A stretch of DNA of 59,532 bases, the filler included, from Sphacelaria rigidula (lineage: Eukaryota), in the NCBI GenBank assembly GCA_964200075.2. It is 7 parts of 7 records of this genome, joined end to end, with 100 filler letters (N's around TTAATTAATTAA, not from the genome) between each part and the next. Parts side by side here need not be neighbours in the genome. Positions count along the whole stretch, not along the records: positions 34,077 to 42,495 come from CAXNAA020011208.1; 6 more parts are not named here. One strand, written 5' to 3'. Under the pieces are notes generated by a model that saw nothing but the letters and a program-made list of their open reading frames with translations, ran no database searches and had not been told where the DNA came from. The stretch's first letter is position 1. Each line of letters begins with the position of its first letter. Below are positions 3,301 through 59,532 of this stretch, in pieces. The translations under genes were made by a program, and so were the position numbers.

Positions 3301-6300
3301 CATCTCTCCCCCCGTTCCTTAGGTGCACATCCCAACCGTGAAGGTCACTTCTCAGAGGAGAGTGCGCGGCTCAGACGAACAAGAGACAGTTACCGAAAAC
3401 AGGAGTCGCGGCTTTGGCTTCGTGCAGTTCTTGTGCCCCAAGGACGCTGCGCGCGTTGTGAAGGTATTGTGCGAGAAGCTGAACACGAGTGCGAAGATGC
3501 TGCTACGAGAACATGAATGCCAACTTATCGTGGTTTATATGTATATATGTGGGACACTTTTTACGATAGCCCCCTCCCCACATCATGCGATTCGCCGAAC
3601 ACACCACGGCACTTCACGCTTGGTGATTGATTGCGAGCCTGGTCCGACGAAAACCCGGCGTGCTCCGTCCCGGCTTTCTAGGGATGCGAGGTCAATGGTC
3701 TTATGACTGTGGCATACATGATCATGAGTACCCCCCCGGGTGCTCCGTCTCGAAAGGGATGCGTGGTCAATGGTCAAATGACTAAGGCAAGCAACAAATG
3801 AGTACGCCCCCCCCAAAAAAAAAAAAAAAAGTGCCTGGTTTGGGGGGCAAAATCTTCACGTAAATCGAAGTGGAAAAAGCCGAGCACAACGAGCAGCTGG
3901 GAATTCCCACGCTTGGGTTCGTTCTCGCCGATGTTGCCCATATGAGGCGCTTCACGCACCCTGAACCCAAACATCAGGCGCTGTATGACCATTTTTTCGA
4001 GACACTTTTGGGTTGGTTTTGGGGGAGGACTACCGTAGAAACTGTCGTGTGTGTGTGTATGTGTGTGTGTGTTTCCACTTGGCTTGTATATTTTCTGGAG
4101 TACATCTACCCTACTGTATGTAGTCGACGAGGGTTTTGCATTTGTTCACCTTGGGCGGTACGTATGCCTATTTTGTGACTATGGCGGAGTTTGTCGCGAG
4201 TATCAGCTAGTTGATGAACGTGAGACAAATGATATCTCAATCAACCAATCAAGGGATCATGAAAAGAAAAGAATCACCTGGTCCTACCGCCCGACGGAAG
4301 TTATCATTATGGGAAATGACCAATTTTAATTTACAACCGTCGTCCCCCCGGTTGCTGGCCGCAGGATCACGGAGTGCTCAAAATCTGCGGGCGGGACGCG
4401 GCCGTGGACTACTCCATCACTAAGGAAAAATATGACACCATGCGTCAGCAACAAAAGATCCAAGCGCCACCGGATCAAGCCGAGAACAAAAGCAAAGACA
4501 AGAACAAGAACAGTAACAACGCTGATAGCAGCGGGGAGGACGAATCAGTGGAGGATGACGATGACGATGATGATGACGAGGAGGGAGGGGAGGGTAGAGT
4601 AAAAAAATCGGGCACCTCCGAGTCTGGCATGGATGACGATGACGACGACGATGATAACGATGATGATGATGGGGATGATGAAGCGGAGGAAGGGGGACCC
4701 GATGCGGGGGCGGGGCTAGGGCGAACCCCGAGGGCGGCGGCAGCGAAAAAAAAGGCCCCGGACGTTCAGCACGGGTGCACTGTGTTCGTGCGCAATGTAG
4801 CGTTCGATTGCGGAGAAGATGAGGTCCGCGAGAGGTTCGGGGAGTTCGGCAGTGTGAAACTGGCGCTGTTAGTGAAGGATCGCGCTACTGGGATGCCCAG
4901 AGGGACGGCGTTCGTTAAGGTGCGTTAGCAGGGGTGGTGGGGGAGGGGATCCATGTTTCGGTAATTCAGGATATGTGTGTGCTTCTCGCTATTACGTTAC
5001 CGAAATATTGCGGGGGGGGGGGGGGGGTTAGGTGTACTCATGATGTTGCATGCAGCAAACAAATAATCACTTATCTCCCGACCCCACAAACCNNNNNNNN
5101 NNGGGTGGCGTGTGTAAGGTGGAGTGGTCATGGGAGGGGGGGGGGGGGGGTTAGGTGTACTCATGATGTTGCATGCCGTAATCAAATGATCACTGATCTC
5201 GCGTCCCTACAAAGCCGGGACAGAGCACGGCTGGCTTTCACCGGACCAGGCTCGCAATGAATCACCAAGCGCGAAGCGCCGTGATGTGTCCGGCTAGTCG
5301 CATGAAGTCAAGGCATCCCGCGGAGAGGGGAACGTAGGCATAGGGGGTCGAAGTGTTGACGTGATTGGTACTGCTACTGTATAAAAGATACAAGATATAT
5401 TGTGCAGAGAGAAGTATCCCCGACATGAAATTTCGCAGCCGGCCAGAAGTTTGATTCGTCCAATCTCAACACGAAATTTCGCAACCCAGGTGTGTACCGG
5501 TTTTTGATTTTTGGCTGAAGGGTAACGACGACGACGGCAGCAACAACGCCTATTTCCCAAAAGGAGGGTGGGGGCGGGGGGGCATGAGGGCTGATGGTTG
5601 GTTGGGTGGATGGTTGATGTGGATGGGCTTCATGTGCGCATGGTTTTACTTAGAGAGTAGATTGATGATTTACGGTGCACATTCGCGGGGAAAATAATCG
5701 TGGACATGAAGGGGGATGGATCGCGGGGACTACAAGTCGTTAGGTGCGAATCAAACGTTCACATCCAATCGTTCACGAGGCTGCCAGTTGGAGTGTACAA
5801 CATGCTGCACGCTCGAGCCCGATTCTGCGAAAATCTGTCGGTGAACTGACATGATGGTCTTGGGCCTGGTGCGCTGCATGTACTGGATCAGGACACACGA
5901 CTGCCAGTACTTTTATAATCGACATCGATGATGGTTTAGAGTACAGGGGTGATTGCTGAAAAGTTGACAGCCGAAAAAATCCAACCATCAATGAACAGGT
6001 TGGTTAGTGAACACACCACTTCCCGCAATGTCGGGTGAAGTCACTTACGTTGTGTTTTCTTGTCACGAACGATTCACGGAGCTTCGTAGATTCACTGAGC
6101 CTCGTAAATTCGAGGAGCTTCGTATATATTTTGTTGTTTCAGGTCACGATTTTACGGAGCTTTGTATATATTTTGTACCTTCATGTCATGATTCAAGGAG
6201 CTTCGTAGATTCGAGGTTCGACACACGGGCCATTAGAGGGCGAATATTTGGAAAGTGAACTTCCGTTCTTCGAATCCTCATCAAATATGAAGATGAATAT

Positions 6301-35026: not shown

Positions 35027-38000
35027 CTATTTCACCTTCTTCTTTTTGTGCACCCTATCCCACATCCACGTGTCATAATCCAACCGAATGTAACTGGTAA
35101 CCCGCGTCTGTTCCCCACTCTCCGCAGTCGTAACCTCTTCGTGGTACTTCACTCTCTCCTGCGCCGGTCCCTCTCGCGGCTCCTTCCGGAAGTACTTCTG
35201 CAACTTCTCCATCCCGTCGGGGCTTAGCGAGTTCGCAGTAGCCAAGACAGCCGTGAGCGCCGGCGGGAGGTAAGACGTCTCCTCCTCCGCGGCGCTTGTT
35301 GGTGCCCCCGCCACTCCGAGTCCCATCATTGCTGCAACGGCGTCGATCTCACCCGCTCCAGGTATGGTTGGCGCCTCCGGTGGCGTGGAGGGCTTCTGTG
35401 GCCTACCCCCCTCGGACCATGACGCAGCACCATCCGCGCTATCCTGCGCTCGGCCATCGGCGATGCCACTACTGGCGGACGCTTGTTCTGTTGTCATACT
35501 AGAATTGATCGCCCCGCCAGCTCCGCTGCCGCCGCCAACTTCTCCAGAAGCGGCGGACCCTGCCGACGGATTTTCTTCCTCGCTCGGGGTAACTTTGGCC
35601 TTTTTCCGACCGGGTCTACCCTTGGCCTTCTCTCTCGCGGATTCCTTCTCCGCCTCGATGGCCTGCAACTCATCGACGTTTATCATCATCACGCCCATCT
35701 TGCGCCCGCCTGCGCCCCCGACGTTTCCTCGCGCGCCGCGCGCCCCGTTGCCCCCACCTCCGCCGGCCTTGCGCACTCCAAGATTCAGATGATGCCCCGA
35801 GCCGCCGGTGCTACGCTGAAGAACCCCGCGCGAATGCGCCAAGGCCATAGGCTTGCTGGTGCGCCGACGTCCGTCAGACCCTGCAGACGGGTCCATCGCT
35901 GTCAAGTTGACCCTTCGCGCCTGAGCGAGATTCGGCCCGGTAGACGACGCGGGCTGGGACTGCGGTGCGGGCGGTTTCATCAATCCCCCGGGGGTTGCGC
36001 GGAAACCAGCGGTGGCCCCGGCGTTTGGCGGGGAATTGGACGCGCTAGACGCGGCAGCAGCGCCCGGGTGCCATGAAGAGGCCAGATCCTCGGAAAAGTC
36101 GTCGAAAGTGTTCCCCCGCGCGTTGAAGTGTACATTTTCGAATTCGTCCTTCGGAGGTTGTTGCTTCCGGCTCACCTGTGTCGCGATCGCCAAAAACATG
36201 GCACCATACACACACATATATATAGGTATACTATACCCGTGACTTCTCCCGCTCTCAGTCTGAAAGCCGGCATGTTTTTTCTTGAATAGAAAATGTGCAG
36301 TTCACGCGTTTTTATGTGCTGTGGTGTATTTAGTGATGATCACAGGCGGTGGACTGTCGCAGGCTGTTCGCTGGGCATGTGAGCACTCTTCCGCCAATCG
36401 TGGGCGGGGTTGATCATGTTCTTCCCGTGCGAGACGCGCTTCAAAAGGTCTGCGGGGAAGGGCAAATAAGGTGATGTTAGCCAGAACAGGATATATTTCA
36501 TGGGCAGAAAGTAAGAAAGCACACAGGCCGCCTTGAGTATCCAAAGCTTGGCCCCCCAATTCCCGATTTGTCAGTTTTCCCCACAACATCAGAACTCCAT
36601 GGCATCGAGGTCAACAACCGCATACCAAGTACGAACGCTCCGCGTTGGCATAGGCTTCAGGCGTTACACCAGCACCCTTGCTGTGCGTGGTAAACCATCA
36701 CAGGTTAGGCTACAGCACCAAGTCTGAAGGTGTGTGGTGAGCTGACGTGTAACGTTACACCCCTGAGTTTCTTAACTCTTCTTCGGCTGAAAAACTGTCG
36801 GTACCGTCATTACTAACCGCATTTTGAAACACAGGTTAAAATCGGTATTTGCACAAACGCGGGAGCCATTCTCCATTCTACCCTTCCGATAAGCGACCAC
36901 AGATAACTCACCCTGTACCATACCCTGTGCCATCCCTTCGAACGGGCGAGCAGCACTTGCTGGCAGCCGTCGTTTGAGCCAAAGTTTTGTTCATAGCCGC
37001 AGTTAAAGAAGTACGATATGTCTCGGTTGTGCTCACCTCCGGTCATCAACATACGGAAATAATGTATCACAGCGGCACTCAAAGTAGTGGTAGCTACTGT
37101 TCCTTAGCTATAAAGCGCAAGCTCAATTGCCTGGCACCGAGTGGATAGAGATGCCGTTAACTACGTGCATAGCGCTTGAGCACAGAAAATGTGCTGGAAA
37201 TGATAGTTGAAAGCAAATGTTGAACAAAAACGGCAGCTCCGCAGCATATGGCTCTTCCCAACTAATCCAAGCTTCTTGGGTCTCGTACTGTTATGGGGGG
37301 GACTGGAGGGCCTAACAACCAATAATCAGCGGCAAACTAAAAAAAAAAGTGCGGAGGAATAATGAACACGTCAGGAGGTGGTCACACCTGTGCCGAGGCC
37401 CTCTCGAGCAGAACGCACGCTTCATCACTTATAAACTTGGTTTACTATGGGACAGCTCTAGCACGGGAGATCGCGCGGTTCTCGACACAGGAAAAAAATG
37501 GCCCACGGCACTTCACACCCTCCCGCATACACACAAGATCTAAAAGATTCTAATTCACATTTTCCTGGCGTTGCGCCAGCAGCGAGAAACCCTCATCCCA
37601 GAGCGCAAAACACCTCATTTTTGTACGTTTGGGTTTGTTGCGGCTCAGTATCACGCTCAAACGAAAAAGTAAAATAGATTGACCTAGCTTGGGTGTGTGG
37701 GAAGCGCACGCAAGAAACTGCGGTCCAATCCTCTGCTTCGTCGCCGAGTTCTACGCATTGCGCGATCGGCACTTTTGGGTTGAGGATTAGTATCTAGCGC
37801 TACTAGAGGTCCAACATCGCAAATTCAAAAAAATCGGTGCGCATGATGTTTTTTCTCGCCGCAAGTTGTCACGACATGCAGTTTGGTTGCGTGTCGGCAG
37901 GCGCTGCTGCTTAGTTCTGTGCGGCTGTGCACAAAAGGCAATTTCGCCTTCCAACAGCGAGTATCCCTTCAAGTGTCGAATTTCAGAGGGGGAGTTCACA

Positions 38001-40449
38001 GAAGAAAGACAAAGCTAGCGGCTACTTCGTGTCAGAGCTCCAGGGCAAAAGCCGAGGCTTCTAGAGCGATTGTAGTACTTGCACCGCCTTACATTTGCTG
38101 GCGACTGTTGTGATCATGTACTTGGTAATTTGTCTGTTTATGTTATACTAATGTAAGAGTGAGATGCAAACTATGCGACGGTCGACAGCTTCGTTCTGGG
38201 CTGCATATTTTTTTCTTGCAGCGAGCAGTGTGTGACGGTGTTTCACTTTGTGGCGTGCCGCCAGGTGCTGCTTCGTTCTGTACGGCTGTGCACATTGAGC
38301 AAATTAGTCTTTCAACAGCGAGTACCCTTCATGTATTGAGTTGCAGAGGGCGGCGTAACACACGAACTTCGGCTGTTGGATCTGAGGGTTCCAGCGGAGA
38401 AACCAAGGCACCAAGGGCGATTTTTATTTTAGACTATACACTATGTATGAACAGGTCAGCAGAGCCACGGGGCTTCGACTGACTGCCTGTATATACTGAA
38501 AATAATATGTAAACCATGCGATGTACACCAACTTGCATCTTCGACCAAATGCTATTTTTTGGCACCAATGTCACGACAATCGCTTCGGTGGCGGTCCGCC
38601 ATGTGCTCCTCTGTTCTGTGGGGATGTGTACGGAGGACAACCTCACTTATCATGGGCGAATGCCCTTTCACCCCTTGGCTTGTAGAGGACGAGTTCATCG
38701 ATTAAACATGGCCGTCTTCTCACAGACGTTTTCGAGACAGAACCCAAGGGATGCGCAACGCTGCTGCTCATGGTATCCAAATTTCCGTACTTTCTCGTTC
38801 TAGCACGATGTCAGGCACGCCCTTCACTGCAGATGCGTTGGTGTGTGGCGGCCACAAGTGCTGCTGTTCGTCTTCTTGTCTTCTTGTCTTCGCAATGGTG
38901 GTAAACGTGGGGTGCCAGCTCGGGGGCGTGCGCTTCCCGAGTAGTACAGCAGCTGAACACTTGCACCAAGAGTTTCCACCCACTGATCTGGAGCGAGTTA
39001 TCCGGAGGAACAATATCATCTCAACACCGAGCACTCACAGGCTTGAAGATATGTCCTATGTTTATGATACATTTTATATGAGCCAGGTCGTTGTTTCTAG
39101 GTGACGCATGTATTTTTTAATGATATGATATGATATGATTCGCCTGATTACGGTCCAGTTCTTACGCATATAGCGTTCGTGATCCATTTTCCCGAAATAT
39201 AGTACCCAAAATCGGGCCCCAGTCCCACCCATAACTGTACTACACTCATGGTGTACATTGTCCTGAATTTTGTACTTGAAGTAAATATGACCTCAATCGT
39301 GTACTTGTTTGGAGTTCGAACTCTATCGATCAGCCTGTTCTTTGTGTTTGGAAGCCGGCACAACGCTGTACAGTGTTGGATACGGGCTTTGTATACGAGC
39401 CGGGCCAGCTTAAAAGCGGCCAAACGTTGCCCACACTACAGCTTTCCCACTTTCCCGAATGAACCCGATGTGAGCACATCACTGTAAAGTGCAGACCAAC
39501 GTGGTAACACACGGCACCGCCGCTGAATGAAGAAAACAAATGAAAAAAAATGTACGAGAGAGGTGCTCGCAACAACATGGGGCTTGTGCGGGATGTGTGT
39601 GGGGGGAGGGGGGGGGGGGGAACACAAAAGCACCGACAAAGTCTACCTTCCTTCGTCCCATACCATTTCATTTTGCTAAATAGGATCGATAATACCCCCC
39701 CCCCCCCCCCCCCCTCACATATGCATCTTATTGTAACCGTATTGTTATTACAGTCGATCACAATCATACTCGGTGGGTGCTGCAGCTTGCCCTAAAGAAA
39801 TAGGCGGCGAGGAGCCCGAAAACCGGCATATTTGTCATCATCTACAGTATACGTAGGCCGTTAAGCAAGATAATGATTAAAAAATGGTCGGCGCAACACT
39901 GCTCACGTATCTCTCCTCTACAGGGCCGAAGTAGGGCGCCTCCCCGACCAATCGACGTTTGCTTCCAGCGGTGGAAGCAGACCCAGTTCCTCCATCTGCT
40001 GTTCCTCCTCCCCCGCTTCCATTGGATGGGTCATCGATTATTCGTTTGGCCCGTGTGAGAACATCCGCAACTGTTCGGTTCAAGATGGTGGTCGACGTGA
40101 TGTTATCGGCTGCATCAGCTGCACCTGGTAAACCTTCCTCCCGTTCCTGCTGCAGTAACAGCTTATTCCGCACCAGACCGGACACTACCTGCACCCACTC
40201 ATCCTTGTCATCATCGGCTACGCGCAGAAATTCCGGTAGGTGACGCCGCAAGGACCTATGCTGCTCTGTTCGTATTCCCAAGAAGGCGATGAGGGCCCGC
40301 ATCTTGATCGTGGGTTCAAGAGCAGGAAAGCCCGGCAGAAGCACCTTATCTACGAAGTCAGACGTGAGCATCTGCACCACATCTTCGCTGCTCCAGTTTG
40401 CCTCTAGTCTTAGCTCGAACGCCCGAATATGATTTGGTTGCGCAGGCAT
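35027..40449 (-). CDS. NELFA: Negative elongation factor A (NELF-A)-like protein, ~563 aa; exons 40449-39907 and 36175-35027
   Basis: ATG to TAG with one phase-0 GT-AG intron. The N-terminus reads WSSEDVVQMLTSDFVD..F..LEPTIKMRAL..DDDKDEWV..PVEERY..VHF and the C-terminus ANSLS..KYHEE..TSYIRLDYDTWMWDRVHKKK. These match, in order, the conserved NELF-A N- and C-terminal blocks as I recall them, with a low-complexity middle. Confidence 0.75.
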
Positions 40450-41353
40450 TGTAATCTACTCTACCCCCGGCCTTGGTGTGTAGTGGCTGGGATTTGGCTG
40501 GGACCATACCCAGCTGGTTGACATCGAGATTGCGGGGAGTTCTTGGGCTTTGGACTTTGTTTTTCGATCCTTGCATTAGCCGTTTCACTCAGACCCGCGG
40601 TCGAAATATACGCTATGAAAGACTACAGTGCGACTCAGCCTCCCCTGGCGGAGGTACGTCATTGCAGTGGCGAGCTAAAGGTAGTCGTCCCCCGCGCTAG
40701 AAAATATACGCCATCAAGATAATGACTCAGATGTGAAAACCCGAGCAAGGGCATACCACCGATATGTAAGAAATGAAAGTAGTCACGAGGCGTATAGTAG
40801 AAAGTCATACATGCTACAATTATTTTAGAGTATCGTACCTTACTTTATTATTTGTTTTCTTTCAACAACGTTTTCGTGGGATTGAGAGCGGGACGCTGAT
40901 TGAGAGTGGCTTTTGTAGTTCGCTTCAACTTGGCCAATTTTTCATTTCGTGTGTGCTTTTTTTGCCTTCATCACCAGCGTGTGTTTACAGCTATTTTACA
41001 CGTCGCAAGGGCATCTTCTGTGGCAAGCTACTACAGAAAGCATATATCGGGCCTCGTGGAGGGGCAATTCGGAACTGAAACGATTAGTTTACTAATTGAC
41101 CGCTTTTCACTCTCAATCGTATCCTCTGCTCTCAATATCACGAAAACATTGTTTTATTCCGTTTGGTGGCGGCACCAATGATAAGAGTGGTGGGAGCGGA
41201 AGTGCCCGACCGATGTAACGGCGCTGCTCCACCACGCCTTCTGTTCCTGTTCGATTTTTGCGCTTGATAATACTTGTAGGGGGCATATCTGATCTGATTT
41301 TCGTACGCTACCACGTGATCGGTTTTGTTTCGCTTGATTATGCTAAAGCATGG

Positions 41354-41810: not shown

Positions 41811-43342
41811 TGGCGCTCCTGTTGTTGCCGTGTGCAATGTGTCACCGACTAAGTAGTGTTTCATCCTACGGTAGATACACTCTGAATGGTAGATGAGATG
41901 TATGTCTATCCTCTTGTCTTCGGTGAGGCTACGTAGGGCAGCGCACGGACACGGAAACTAACACAACATGGTGAAACAGTGACTTCGGCGTATATAAGAG
42001 GTAAACAATATATAGCCGCACGATATCCCCACGTTGCCATATTCCTAGATTGTGGTCACATGCGGTCACGTGGTTTCACCATATCGTCTGACCCTTGCAG
42101 TGAGCAAGCCACACAATTGACGGAGTTCACATTCATACTGCTGACTACCAAATTACTTCGGGTCAGATTATTCTCTGCTCACTATTATAGCTACTTGAGT
42201 GTAGTGTGGCAAAGACCCGCGCCTGGTACTGTACAAGCGGTCACAACGACTTCGACACGAAAGGAAATGTACACACGTCGGACAGGTCATGATCTACCTA
42301 AAAATACAAATCGACGAAAACTCTCAGATCTGTGGTCCACTACACAAAATATATATGTGACGGCAGGGTCCGAGAAGCCAAAGCGCTACGTTTACGCTAC
42401 TACCCCGCATGCTCGGCGTCCAGCCCTGCAGGGAGCAAATAACAGCCGATTTTCGAAAATGGGGTTGAAAAAAAAAATGAGGTTCAACTCAAAAGNNNNN
42501 NNNNNNNNNNNNNNNNNNNNNNNNNNNNNNNNNNNNNNNTTAATTAATTAANNNNNNNNNNNNNNNNNNNNNNNNNNNNNNNNNNNNNNNNNNNNCCCCC
42601 CCCCCCCCTAAAAAAGAAGTAGAAATGGCGGTTTCGGACAGCGCTGTAAGATCACAGAGTCGATAAAATGCGCTGAAGAAGTATCTACGCGATCGAGGGG
42701 CATTAGGCCGGCAAGAAAGTTGTTGGGCTCCATCGCTGAAAGCGTGGAGAAAGTACTGTTTTGAGCTCGAACCTCATTTGATAGAATCCTCTGTTTAGAG
42801 CTTGAAAGGTGTAGGTGTACTGCCGTGTGCGTCCTAGCTTTGTGTTTTTAGCCGCACCACTCGGTCGGTGCAGAAACGCCATATCCTCGGCTATGTCTTC
42901 GTTCGCCTGCTCTACCCATTCGTTCGGTTCAAACCGTAAAGAGATTTATTTGCTGTTTTTTCATGAATGGGCTGCTACTCTTCTCGATAGTTTCAAATGA
43001 CGACTGACAGTAACACGACTGATGATGAAATAGAGTTGAGACGGCCAAACATAGTTCCGCACGGTTCGTGTTCTAGTCCGTCAGAGAACGGAGTTTTGAA
43101 TTCACATCAAGAGGAGCCCCGAGTATTCCTTAGTGCAGCGCAGCTGGGCCTCTACAGCGTTTTAGCTTCGAATCGAAAGCGACGACTGACAACGAAGTTC
43201 CGCCTCGTCGCTGACCGGCCTATTCTGTGCCATCCGTCCCCATCGTGCGTGAAATAAGGAAACAAACGTGCACGAGGACGAACGTACGTGGTCGAAGTGC
43301 ACAGAATAACAACACTGGTGTGACCACTATCTCATCATTACC

Positions 43343-44788
43343 ATGGTAAACCCCTACGCGGTCGGAGAACGGGCTGTCCTACAGAAGTCGAAGGTCAAGC
43401 TGTTCGACCTTGTCTGCAAGAATGCCACGGAGGAGCAGTGGGCGGAATGGCTGAGGGTGCCGCTAGAACATGCTGCTGCTGGGGGTGATGTAGCCCTGGT
43501 GAATGATCTTCTCGCAGCCGGAGCTAATGGGGAGGCCGGCTGGAAGGGTTGCCACAACCGGACCCTGCTATGTGCGGCCGCGCAGGGCGGAAAGCTGGAG
43601 GTGGTAAGGGCCTTGATCAAGGCAGGCGCTCGACCAGACGTGAATGAGCCTGGCGGCAAGCAGCTACGATCACCGCTGCACTATGCTGCACTCAATGGAT
43701 GTGAGGGAATCGCGGAGGAGCTGTTGCTGAGCGGGGCTAATCCCAATGACAAGGACAGTGAGGGCATTGCTCCCATCTATACCGCCGCCGAACTAGGCTA
43801 TGAGGGAATCACGTCTCTGCTGCTAAAGGCGAGGGTGGAGGTGGACGTGCGGGGCTTTGATGATACCACCGCTCTACACTGGGCTGCGATGAGCGGACAC
43901 TTTTCGGTGGTGATGGGACTGTTGATAGCTGGCGCCTCTGTATCTTTGAGAAGTAAGAAGGGGCGCTCGGCGCTAGACTTCGCCGTCATGGGAGGACATT
44001 TGGATGTAATTAGGTTGCTTGGGCAGCGCGGGGAGCATGTGAGCTGTGCAGAAAGCAAGGACACCGTTCTGCACTTGGCGGCGACCCACAACCAAGCAGG
44101 CGCTGTGGATGTGCTGGTTGACGTCGGGTGTGATGTCCGAGCGCGTGGTAGACATGGCGCCACACCTCTTCATTTTGCTGCGTGCAAGGGAAACTGCGGT
44201 GCTTTGTCTGCCTTATTGCGACACCACGCGAACGTAGACGCCAAGGCTGCCAAGGGCAGGACGCCGTTGATGTGGGCCATCAGTTGCCTGCATCAGGAAG
44301 CTGCGGACCTCCTGCTGAGATGGGGTGCTGACGAGAATAGTGCCGACGACGAAGGCCGCTCTGCTAAACAGTTCATTGGAATCAGCCTACAAAAGGCCGA
44401 ACGTGAAGGGAGACGGCGGGACGTGGATAATATTCACAAGCTACTAGCGAATGCCCCGGCGGATAGAGCATGGCGACGGCGGGGATTGTTGCTGCTATGT
44501 CGCGCTTTCTGGAATAAGGCGTGGTTCGGTACAGTCAACAATCAAGATCGTGGCAGCGTGGCGAAGAAGGGTAAAGCGAGCAGCCGGACCAGCACCATCA
44601 CGCTCGACAGAACGCAGAAAATGGACGCGCACACCAGCAGTGGTGATTCTGCTGGGGAGGCAGAGAAGGCTACAGCGTGCATCGCCAAATCTGAGCACGA
44701 AGCTCGGCGTGGTTCGTGCAGTGTTGAGGTCAGGGTGGTAGGAATGGAGGAAGATATTATCTTCCGTCGCATCGTGACTTTCTTGTAA
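43343..44788 (+). CDS. Intronless ankyrin-repeat protein, 481 aa
   Basis: Uninterrupted ORF in good ACCATGG context. About nine ANK repeats (SPLHYAALNG, TALHWAAMSG, TVLHLAA, TPLHFAA, GRTPLMWA). The C-terminus is APADRAWRRRG...EEDIIFRRIVTFL. Confidence 0.93.
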   Translation: MVNPYAVGERAVLQKSKVKLFDLVCKNATEEQWAEWLRVPLEHAAAGGDVALVNDLLAAGANGEAGWKGCHNRTLLCAAAQGGKLEVVRALIKAGARPDVNEPGGKQLRSPLHYAALNGCEGIAEELLLSGANPNDKDSEGIAPIYTAAELGYEGITSLLLKARVEVDVRGFDDTTALHWAAMSGHFSVVMGLLIAGASVSLRSKKGRSALDFAVMGGHLDVIRLLGQRGEHVSCAESKDTVLHLAATHNQAGAVDVLVDVGCDVRARGRHGATPLHFAACKGNCGALSALLRHHANVDAKAAKGRTPLMWAISCLHQEAADLLLRWGADENSADDEGRSAKQFIGISLQKAEREGRRRDVDNIHKLLANAPADRAWRRRGLLLLCRAFWNKAWFGTVNNQDRGSVAKKGKASSRTSTITLDRTQKMDAHTSSGDSAGEAEKATACIAKSEHEARRGSCSVEVRVVGMEEDIIFRRIVTFL

Positions 44789-51469: not shown

Positions 51470-54400
51470 CTCGATGCCCCACTGCATTCCGAAATACTCG
51501 TTTCCGATACAGCCCTCCTCGCACATCTGCTCTCGTTCCGGTGACGAAAAGGCAAGACAGGGTGGGGGAGACGTGTGTAGGGTTAGGTATGAAAACCGTC
51601 AGAGCCTCGACGCATTTGGCCGATGTCTGGTTGGAGCACGTTTCGGTTGAGACCCAATATTGTCGAAGAAGTATTTTCTTGGAGAAATCCTGAAAGTTTG
51701 GATATCTCCAGACGGCCAGTTCTTCTCAAGTTCTGCCATTGCCGCTAAATCGTTAATCACGGACACAACAGTTGCAATCTCGTCGTTGGCCTGACGCCAC
51801 CACTCCGCCAGTTCACGGCGAATCTTACTCTCCGATACGGCCCCAGAGTATCATCGGCGGGGTTTCTGACGAGTCTCGGACACTCGCAAGCGCCACGATG
51901 TACACGCGGGGCAACTCTCCGAAGTGCTGCGTCGCAAGAAGCAGCCCTAGCATCCTGACCCAAACATTATACACCAATGTGTCCTTTACATGCGCATGAG
52001 AGCAGTGTCGAACCAAACAATATATACCACCACAGCGACTATCACCATCACCCCCACCCCCACTGCCACCAACGATCCACATCACCAGGTGCGCGCCGCA
52101 ATCACCAATGACACTCGACAACCCCCACCTCGAACGATCAGCTACGCCCATTTCGTCCCTCGCCGCTCCCTTGCATACGCACCTCGGCAGTCATCTTATC
52201 GTCGACTGTGAGCTTCGTCATGATACGATCTGTGTCGCTATCGGAGAAGCATCCAAGCAGCGTCGATCCCTCGGGCGTCATGTCGTCAAAACTATCGTCA
52301 TCGGTGGGCGCAATCACCGGCTGTTCGGTCTCCATGGGACTAGGTGCGGGGTTGCTGCCTGGGGTTTTGAGAGAATCAAGCAATTCAGTGTGATTTGTGA
52401 GCCGGGGTGCGCCGAACACCGGACAAGTGAGCGTGCTCTGTTTTTTTTTGCGCTATTGGGTCGCACAGAAACGTTCAACAGGAACATATCACGATGTGTT
52501 GAGGTCTCAAACACGAGTCATGCTACGGTAGGGTGTGTGTGTATGATGCCACGAAAAGTATGGCTCATGGGGCTCATAGACGTGTCAGACGATCTGACAC
52601 ACTCGCGATGCGCTTGTACTTGGGTGAACCCGGTGTCAAGCGGTATGAGTGGGTGTTATTTTTCGGTAACAAGCGCGTTCGAACAACCGTTGCTGCTTCT
52701 AACAACGATTTGAAGGGAAATTTCGTCAAAACAAAAGGCCCAAAATACCCCCCCCCCCCTCCCCTTATTGTAGCATGACTCATACACAGCATAGAAGGCT
52801 AAAAATGTAGCCCTAATTTGGGCGATCACTCACATTTGTCACACCTTATGGTGGCTGCTTGTTTTGCTTATAGAGATCATTATTCTAAATACAGAAACAT
52901 CACAGGGGCGCCGATGAGTCCCTTACCGCCCACAAGAGAGATGTCGGAGCATTGCCAGAACTCCTCGGGGTAGGTCCCACCTGTTCCGCATACCACCCGT
53001 TTGTTCGTGAGCACCCACTGGTCTTTGTTCGGCGCGCAAGAGCTTGGCCACGAGGGAGGGTTGAACTCTTCGTAGCCGACGTGCTTGCAATTGTTGGCGG
53101 CGTCTGCGATGAACCGAAGCGCGCGAGGATGGGTGCCCGAGTCAAACGACGCGTCCACGGGAAAGAGGGGAGCAGGGATTGCGCGGGCGCTTTCGGCGCT
53201 CACTTTTATCTCGGCCCTACGTTGCTATCGCGGGAACTTTCAGGACACACAACACCTACAATTCAGCAACGATCGATGCTTATCGATCTCCACGACTTAG
53301 CATTTCCTGGCACAAGTCACAAGAGTGCTCGGTAACACGTGGCCACCTGAAAATACCCGCTGTTACTGAGCACAGCACCCTCGCACGTTCATGTATCTCC
53401 CAAAAGCTTAGATCATGATATTCAATGTCTCAATTCTTCAAACACTTTTACGTCAATAACCCAGTAGGGAACCTGGAGTAGCACAGAACCACCACATCTC
53501 ACCCCCCGCCCCAACTCCTTCTTTGATCGGGGTCAAACCAACAGTCGAGGTAGACACTCCATGCCTTTTCCTGGGAGACTCGTGTAAACACTCACAATAG
53601 ATCATCTGGAGGACACAGTGCTCGCAGGTGATGTCGGGAAGCCGGTACCGCATGTTCATCACCTGGCCCTCCTCTGCACCCTCAGGCTTGGACTGATCCA
53701 CCTCATTCTCCCGGCACTCGGCGTCCACGTAGTAGCGGCCAGGGAAAGCTGGATCGATAGGGCTATTGTTATCGTCACCGTCGGCACGAGTGAGTGGGTA
53801 CCTGTTGAGACAGCTTTGAGTCACTACATCCTTTGGGTCATCCATATCCTCAGTGTTGCAGAGGAAAAATTCGAAGTGACCCTGAACGTGCGTATGCCAA
53901 GTATATTCCGCGAGAGGGGGCGGGGGGTGGAGAGTTGGGGGTGCAACGACTTTGCATGCGGGATGTATGGGATGTGGATGTGTGATACCAGGGTGCCGAG
54001 GTTAAGAATGTCCTACGATCGAGTTGGGGGTCGTGCATAGCTCACTGTCCATCTACACCGTGTGGATTGCATGGTGCCGTAAATATAAATGAGTTGCGAA
54101 GCAGACCGAGGTTTACATACGAACACGTTGTCGCCATTCATTGTGAAAAACGTTCGACACTAAATTTTGTTGGTTTGATACTAGGTCAGGTTGAGATCTG
54201 GTCGTAAATTTGTTCATCGGTCAAGCCTTGCTTTTTCACAAACGTGTGGCGTGTTCGAAGCATTCAATCGCCTTGCGTTTGCGAAAAAGGGGAAAAATGG
54301 ACAAAACCGAAAATATACGGAACCAGACATCGGCGGGGTTAGCCTCGCTGCTCACCCAGTGATGAAATCTCATGACGGCCTTGATGTCTATGATGGATCC

Positions 54401-58598: not shown

Positions 58599-59254
58599 TA
58601 CGTACACGGAAAAAATAAAAATCAGCCCTGTACCTGTACACGCCAAAACTGTCTGGCTGCTGGCAACAAAATTTCTACTCTCGATCGCCAGATGATTGCC
58701 CTATATATTGCGATCAAAACAATTAGTTGAAAGAACGTTGATATGTTCGGAGAATGGCAAAGTATCAACACTGAAAGACTGCTGTACGCATTGAGGGATT
58801 GATTGGTCGATTGACTGAATCTCGCACGTTGACATCATCTTGTCCGCTAGGAATCCGGGCATGGTCATTAGATATACATACGTTTATTCCAGGTGCAGTA
58901 GAGAGACGGAAGCAACCGCGAGCCAACAGAATGGAGGAGGAAACAGATTGACCTGAAACCAAGCCAGCAAAAAAACAAAAGAAGATGGGAGAGAAGAGAG
59001 GAGAAGAGAAGAAAAAGAGAAGAGAAATCAACAGAGAAAACGAACAGAAAAAAAGAAAGCAAGAACCCTAGCAACACTCCAGACAGGAGATCCAGACCGG
59101 CCGGCCCCTCCCCCATTGCTTCACGTACGAGTAAGGGAGCCGTGAAAAACCAAGCTTGTGGAAGTAGGTTGAAACTCAGCTGTCCAGGTTCCGCACTATT
59201 CGGGCGGGAACTCAGGAGCTCACACCCTCCGGCTCTGCGGGAACGTACACATAC

Positions 59255-59362
59255 CTTGGAATGTACTGCCCCAGTCGGATTGCTCGGATTGCAAAAAATA
59301 AGCATACGGGTGCGGTCCGATAAAGCAGATCGCAGCCGCTCCGGTGTCAGCAAGAATCCTTC
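59255..59362 (-). CDS. Internal exon of a class I/II PLP aminotransferase (aspartate/prephenate aminotransferase-like)
   Basis: AG|EGFLLTPERLRSALSDRTRMLIFCNPSNPTGAVHSK|GT is 108 nt, phase 0. NPSNPTG is the fold-type-I aminotransferase signature. Confidence 0.8.
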
Positions 59363-59532
59363 CTGAGCCAACAAACAAGAGACGAGGGAATAAGACAAGG
59401 ACAAGCGATTGACATCTGACGCAATTTCGAGTCGTAGCCATGTTTCTGCATGCCGTAGTCACATACTTCGCATCCCTACAAAGCCGGGACGGAGCACGCC
59501 GGGTTCTCGCCGGACCAGGCTCGCACTCAATC

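Follow-up and report, generated by a model that had tools for sequence, protein, structure and literature searches.

Does a brown alga possess NELF-A, which in animals is part of the factor holding RNA polymerase II (Pol II) near gene starts? The question is raised by a two-exon gene on the minus strand, at 35027..40449, of a 59,532-nucleotide stretch of Sphacelaria rigidula DNA (assembly GCA_964200075.2; the whole stretch, made of seven joined parts, is referred to as the window). Comparison of the spliced protein with sequence profiles, predicted folds and relatives leads us to regard the gene as very probably a NELF-A orthologue. Taken as a whole, the observations are probably best explained by a vertically inherited brown-algal NELF-A orthologue, a three-part protein that would act in the way proposed in the last section.

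Conserved domains at the two ends of the protein

Analysis of exon 1 with hmmscan returned Pfam NELF-A_N (PF23553) as the top family, with an E-value of 9.9e-5 over residues 17-94, and a phmmer search of the PDB placed human NELF-A first (E 0.004). An N-domain profile was built from the four brown-algal sequences with complete N-termini (alignment A2), and matched three PDB sequences, all of them NELF-A, at E 0.004. The profile of all 17 aligned sequences (A1) gave no PDB match, because most of its rows lack the first ~48 residues and the corresponding columns dropped out.

Searching 1.84 billion representative proteins with the four-sequence profile retrieved 188 at E ≤ 1e-3. A Pfam scan covered 146 of the 150 listed matches (the best 150 of the 188), and found 85 above the NELF-A_N cut-off, 20 below it and 41 without a match at E ≤ 0.001; the four left out were the brown-algal proteins P0005 and P0023, and P0090 (2246 aa) and P0176 (3546 aa), which match only the first ~40 profile positions. 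All 18 top-ranked matches fall among the 41 without a Pfam match and are not classifiable by Pfam; two of them belong to the ochrophytes Chrysoparadoxa and Phaeothamnion, and eleven are short proteins covering only the first ~50 profile positions. Named matches include the ochrophytes Chrysoparadoxa, Tribonema, Phaeothamnion and Mallomonas, the glaucophyte Gloeochaete, two choanoflagellates, Capsaspora, a Hydractinia protein annotated as 'negative elongation factor A-like', and the dictyostelids Polysphondylium and Heterostelium, whose proteins are labelled 'NELF-A N-terminal domain-containing protein'.

One distant match (P0148, 500 aa) combines a weak NELF-A_N hit (22.1 bits) with a strong Cupin_8 (JmjC-like) hit (E 1.4e-55), and may be a fusion or a gene-model artefact.

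For profile–profile comparison, hhalign was run against an alignment of 20 named animal NELF-A proteins. The spliced protein together with the 17 brown-algal rows matched this reference with 97.3-97.5% probability (E 6.7e-12 to 2e-11), and with 21 further non-animal members added the match reached 99.8% (E 4.8e-30), aligning residues 1-203 with residues 1-166 of oyster NELF-A; column-reversed template controls gave E ≥ 0.37. In this alignment DKDEWV is paired with DsDxWV, PYFGPVEERY with LPLECxYLN, and NVHF with VKHF. The animal blocks that the sequence-only reading of this DNA had cited were all recovered: WAPPSIASLLT and DSDPWV are present in the human chain, PLECQY and KHF correspond to LPLEC.YLN and KHF in the animal consensus and are aligned to blocks of the window protein, and FEMNYATGQW occurs as FEMNY-ATGQW in the Latimeria row. 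The likeness to NELF-A that it had proposed is significant at the profile–profile level, with the direct Pfam match remaining sub-threshold.

Residues 137-168 form an insert that hhalign leaves gapped against animal NELF-A; it is 56% Gly, Ser, Ala and Pro, and only 24% identical to other brown algae. On its own, the segment that follows the insert gave no significant hhalign match to animal NELF-A (E 0.11), and residues 182-203 are conserved in the wide non-animal alignment (A4).

An AlphaFold2 (AF2) model of exon 1 has a predicted local distance difference test score (pLDDT) of about 90 over residues 10-100 and of <50 over residues 144-170. Comparison of the model with 48,161 PDB chains using VIA-align ranked 6gml_U first, with Z 13.5 and a root-mean-square deviation (rmsd) of 2.2 Å over 97 aligned residues (model 4-101 against chain 6-105), followed by 5l3x_A (Z 12.9) and then by an unrelated chain (Z 8.9), so that the predicted fold superposes on human NELF-A. 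Foldseek likewise placed 6gml_U at the top (E 0.019), with NELF-A chains at ranks 1, 2, 3 and 5; for the exon-1 model it found nothing at E ≤ 0.001, and the TM-score of about 0.35 is low because of the floppy tail of the model. The top clusters in the ESM Atlas carry NELF-A_N, with scores of 0.93 and 0.90. Profile comparison and the predicted fold both indicate that this N-domain is homologous to the N-domain of animal NELF-A.

The other end of the protein was analysed with a hidden Markov model (HMM) made from the final ~105 columns of the brown-algal protein alignment. It matched 27 of 148 N-domain profile matches at E ≤ 1e-3, each within 30 residues of the C-terminus, and in a reversed set nothing was better than E 0.6. 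The C-terminal block occurs in one protein with an above-cut-off NELF-A_N domain in Acanthoeca (31 bits), Polysphondylium (26.5 bits) and Diaphanoeca (24.5 bits); Acanthoeca and Diaphanoeca are the choanoflagellate rows, and the dictyostelid blocks score 26.5 and 12.8 bits. The pattern common to the blocks is ..AN.L..E....I..F...NP.P....IKL.EE...DG....Y..L.Y.T..W...KK.K, and with 18 non-animal intermediates included hhalign aligned the algal block with the animal C-terminus at 97.5% (E 7e-12). An AF2 model of the last 101 residues (pLDDT 85.6) shows two helices and a three-stranded sheet. Comparison of this model with the PDB gave no clear fold match (best VIA Z 4.0, best Foldseek E 0.07), and the ESM Atlas gave no usable match for the C-terminal piece. 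On the profile evidence, the C-terminal block is homologous to the C-terminal domain of animal NELF-A.

Between the two domains, residues 216-480 are 54% Gly, Ser, Ala and Pro and 14% hydrophobic or aromatic, and exon 2 matches no Pfam family at E up to 10. From composition only, the middle region is presumed to be a long flexible 'tentacle' like that of NELF-A. Its residues 331-375 are the best-conserved segment, with 72% identity to the 17 brown-algal rows, and the block MMINVDELQAI...KGRPGRKKAK within them recurs in the consensus of the wide non-animal alignment (A4). Equating MMINVDELQAI with the animal KLLDI motif was rejected, the hhalign comparison being not significant (E 0.27).

Relatives, descent and comparison with known NELF-A

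With exon 1 as query, 5.8 billion proteins were searched and yielded 27 longer relatives, all of them brown-algal or unnamed. The named ones, from Hapterophycus, Scytosiphon, Choristocarpus and Ectocarpus, are colinear with the spliced protein end to end, splice junction included. The closest counterparts are the 'expressed unknown protein' of Ectocarpus siliculosus (P0024) and the unnamed products of Hapterophycus, Scytosiphon and Choristocarpus (P0003-P0005), which are direct orthologues with 44-59% identity over exon 1. In the databases consulted the brown-algal relatives are entered as 'unnamed' or 'expressed unknown', with no precomputed Pfam domain and no NELF name.

A maximum-likelihood tree of the N-domain was calculated from 25 rows, picked because they are named. 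The window gene groups with Hapterophycus, Scytosiphon and Choristocarpus (support 97/96), and the brown algae lie inside an 8-row ochrophyte clade (99/97), apart from the glaucophyte, dictyostelid, choanoflagellate, Capsaspora and animal rows. The tree thus points to vertical descent of the gene in a brown alga. The central claim of the sequence-only reading, that of a full-length NELF-A-like gene in a brown alga, is upheld for the N-domain by profile, fold and tree and for the C-terminal block by profile.

Apart from P0003-P0005, the aligned brown-algal relatives begin at an internal Met (MRALIAFLG...) or with an unrelated N-terminus, and are without the first ~48 residues, which in Sphacelaria rigidula are encoded in one exon. 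Many proteins of 60-160 aa match only profile positions 1-50. The internal-Met starts and these short proteins, seen across P0006-P0029 and P0033-P0046, suggest that in other species an intron follows the first ~48 codons and that a first, helix-bearing exon is missing from the gene models.

Comparison with human and animal NELF-A (5L3X chain A, 6GML chain U, PF23553) reveals likeness in the sequence, register and predicted fold of the N-domain, and in an architecture that places a long low-complexity middle before an alpha/beta microdomain at the extreme C-terminus. The algal protein differs in that N-domain identity is only about 15-30% and the N-domain carries a 32-residue disordered insert. 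Its middle region has no sequence relationship to the animal one, nothing like the HDAg-like or Pol II-binding stretch can be detected, and the critical C-terminal Arg of the human protein is not in the same column.

The sequence-only reading had presented pausing machinery outside animals as new, and in this it was anticipated. The available text of Vos et al. (2016, PMC4940160), which describes the human NELF-A N-domain bound to NELF-C in crystal structure 5L3X, reports NELF-A and -C homologues in Chlorella and Dictyostelium and suggests that NELF was present in early eukaryotes. Likewise, the accessible portion of Chivu et al. (bioRxiv 10.1101/2023.02.19.529146) describes NELF-B and -C/D as widespread in eukaryotes, and reports apparent NELF-A homologues in some unicellular eukaryotes, while calling NELF-A more recently derived. 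Our literature search found nothing on NELF in Ectocarpus or stramenopiles, and for brown algae, among the titles listed, only a kelp methylome paper (PMC9923482), which in its available part mentions the 'NELF complex' solely as a Gene Ontology (GO) term. The homologues of Dictyostelium, Chlorella, Polysphondylium and Heterostelium belong to the same family outside animals, and the dictyostelid proteins also have the C-terminal block; they differ in coming from other supergroups, whereas the brown-algal proteins lie below the Pfam cut-off and bear no NELF name. The gene therefore adds a new lineage to the known NELF-A family, of which related non-animal genes were already known.

Gene structure, splicing and other features of the window

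The minus strand contains two long open frames, 39877..40455 and 35027..36301. The start codon ATG lies at 40449-40447; exon 1 ends at 39907, followed by a GTGAGC donor, and the acceptor AG at 36177-36176 stands directly before the start of exon 2 at 36175. Joining 181 and 382 codons in phase 0 gives a spliced protein of 563 aa. The two-exon gene of ~563 aa described in the sequence-only reading is exact in its coordinates and model (ATG, GT..AG, phase 0, stop), and every motif string quoted there is present in the exon translations. The interval 35027..40449 is a real spliced gene of a brown alga, and its parts are listed in Table 1.

Table 1. Positions, along the window, of the parts of the NELF-A-like gene.
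Feature	Position	Strand	Description and basis
Exon 1	39907..40449	-	Residues 1-181, most of the NELF-A N-terminal helical domain; open frame, GT donor at 39906
G/S/A-rich, lineage-specific insert in the N-domain	39946..40041	-	Residues 137-168; hhalign gap, low pLDDT
Single intron	36176..39906	-	3731 bases, GT..AG, phase 0, highly repeated DNA inside; splice sites and contig joint
Exon 2	35027..36175	-	382 codons plus stop, entered after AG
Start of exon 2, last part of the N-domain	36110..36175	-	Residues 182-203 (...DEFENVHF...); hhalign, wide-alignment conservation
Low-complexity middle region, presumed 'tentacle'	35279..36109	-	Residues 204-480; composition
Conserved block within the middle region	35594..35728	-	Residues 331-375 (...MMINVDELQAI...KGRPGRKKAK...); brown-algal identity
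C-terminal domain	35030..35278	-	Residues 481-563; AF2, hhalign, HMM
Stop codon	35027..35029	-	End of open frame

At the protein level, the junction ...PVEERY/VSRKQQPPK is colinear with annotated brown-algal proteins, for example those of Hapterophycus (P0003) and Scytosiphon (P0004), and the brown-algal relatives aligned with the spliced protein show ...PLEERY-VSRKQQP... across it. At the nucleotide level, in three of four public runs (X1, X4 and X6, from two studies, their RNA status guessed) a contig skips 3731 bases; once shifted by 6 ambiguous letters the skip is exactly 36176..39906, with CT..AC ends on the plus strand. In the runs with this joint, word depth is 200-370 on the exons but drops to about 20-30 where the intron begins, and the DNA-like run X5 is flat over the exons and without such a joint. 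The shorter side of the joint has only 24 (+6 ambiguous) letters, under the 31-letter rule, and that these runs are RNA is a guess; the exact joint at 39907/36175, the junction that the sequence-only reading had predicted, is thus supporting evidence for splicing and not proof.

Within the intron, word depth in run X5 rises to 1e4-8e4 at about 37200-39700, compared with about 57-70 over the exons, and many short alternative joints occur. This enormous depth and the many joints indicate that the intron repeats are presumably dispersed repeats or transposon remnants. Tandem repeats in the intron amounted to a single small one, at 37576-37618.

Elsewhere in the window, an open frame at 4320-4928 (plus strand) encodes a long acidic stretch of D/E and, after it, half of an RNA recognition motif, the first (Pfam RRM_1, E 2.5e-10). 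It is apparently one exon of an RNA-binding protein, and none of the tests connected it with NELF-E. An open frame of 492 aa at 43310-44788 (plus strand), full of ankyrin repeats (Ank_2, E 1.8e-47), is the nearest clear gene upstream of the NELF-A start along the joined stretch, whose parts need not be genome neighbours. Two open-frame fragments on the minus strand gave weak Pfam matches, to LPMO_10 at 53453-54001 (E 2.2e-5) and to class I/II aminotransferase at 58868-59458 (E 4e-4).

Possible role and alternative explanations

By analogy with human NELF, the N-domain would dock on a NELF-C/D partner, giving a NELF-like complex on early-elongating Pol II. The flexible middle, of ~280 residues, would tether the C-terminal microdomain and allow it to reach another factor on the early elongation complex, which in human cells is the PHD finger of the Integrator subunit INTS12. 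Whether the protein acts in this way in brown algae, as part of a NELF complex slowing or checking early elongation by Pol II, we consider evenly balanced.

The comparison with INTS12 is based on a 2026 preprint (10.64898/2026.06.30.735463), the available part of which describes human NELF-A 431-528 as a previously unrecognised ordered domain of ~10 kDa that binds the INTS12 PHD finger through R453, a residue found to be critical. From vertebrate spacing and the 528-residue length of the human chain, we infer that R453 corresponds to the Arg in the VTRPEK motif of animals.

Several observations weigh against NELF-A identity and the role derived from it. The direct NELF-A_N score of 22.8 bits is below the Pfam curated cut-off of 27, and of the 17 A1 sequences no more than 4 match NELF-A_N at E ≤ 1. 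Between residue 203 and the C-terminal block hhalign found no significant match to animal NELF-A, the human Pol II-binding region included, and the HDAg-like domain is described in the available text of Chivu et al. (bioRxiv 10.1101/2023.02.19.529146) as found only in animals and Capsaspora. When compared directly by hhalign, the C-terminal block matches the final ~85 residues of the animal proteins only weakly (41% probability, E 2.9e-4). The strong value given above was reached through intermediates, among them choanoflagellates, close relatives of animals, and the argument is thus a transitive one. The place of R453 is occupied by ANSLSPDG (Pro or Ser) in the window protein, compared with ANSLRPEG in most brown algae, where the Arg stands one column earlier than the animal Arg in an alignment that is ambiguous by one residue. 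The Arg is absent in this species and in its closest relative, P0006, and in brown algae the position of the INTS12-contacting Arg would at best be shifted by one column.

The absence of any detectable Pol II-binding or HDAg-like region, and the apparent lack of conservation of the INTS12-contacting Arg in the Sphacelaria rigidula protein, would fit a true NELF-A homologue that has lost its canonical partners or has altered ones. Such a protein would work outside a four-subunit NELF, for example in a reduced A-C/D-B core giving only a weak, dispersed pause, or would serve some other nuclear role through its C-domain. We consider this unlikely, since brown algae and animals have both structured domains in common, a point in favour of retained interactions, and NELF-B and -C/D are reported as widespread in eukaryotes in the portion of the bioRxiv study available (10.1101/2023.02.19.529146).

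Far less probable is a generic helical-repeat protein that resembles NELF-A by chance or through a common fold. The sub-threshold Pfam score and the lack of a Foldseek match at E ≤ 0.001 are in its favour, as is the fact that middling Z scores are common for helical models; but the profile retrieves 85 proteins above the NELF-A_N cut-off, hhalign reaches 99.8% where reversed controls stay at E ≥ 0.37, the NELF-A chains outscore every other chain by 4 Z units and superpose in register, and an independent second domain matches at the same end of the protein. A generic helical-repeat identity is contradicted by the profile, hhalign, fold and C-domain results alike.

Animal contamination of the contig, a concern raised in the sequence-only reading, or recent transfer from an animal, has no point in its support and is barely credible, being contradicted and, for contamination, excluded by the tree, which separates the gene from animals (99/97), and by the relatives, all 27 near ones being brown-algal or unnamed and the next named ones being the ochrophytes Chrysoparadoxa, Tribonema, Phaeothamnion and Mallomonas.

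The conservation in stramenopiles of both the N-domain and the recently described C-terminal domain argues for an ancient origin of the whole architecture. A wider and rather doubtful extension is that the full NELF-A architecture was ancestral to eukaryotes, as opposed to a late addition near animals, that it persists intact in ochrophytes (brown algae included), dictyostelids, choanoflagellates and animals, and that brown algae run a NELF-dependent early-elongation checkpoint. By analogy, this checkpoint may include the contact between the C-terminal domain and Integrator, known since 2026 and only from human cells.

The finding gives a name and a testable role to brown-algal 'unknown proteins', and extends both structured domains of NELF-A to stramenopiles. 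The presence of the N-domain and the C-terminal domain together on both sides of the eukaryote tree qualifies the published view of NELF-A as recently derived. The gene is a candidate, and a candidate only, through which to examine if regulated pausing of Pol II is used by a lineage that became multicellular independently.

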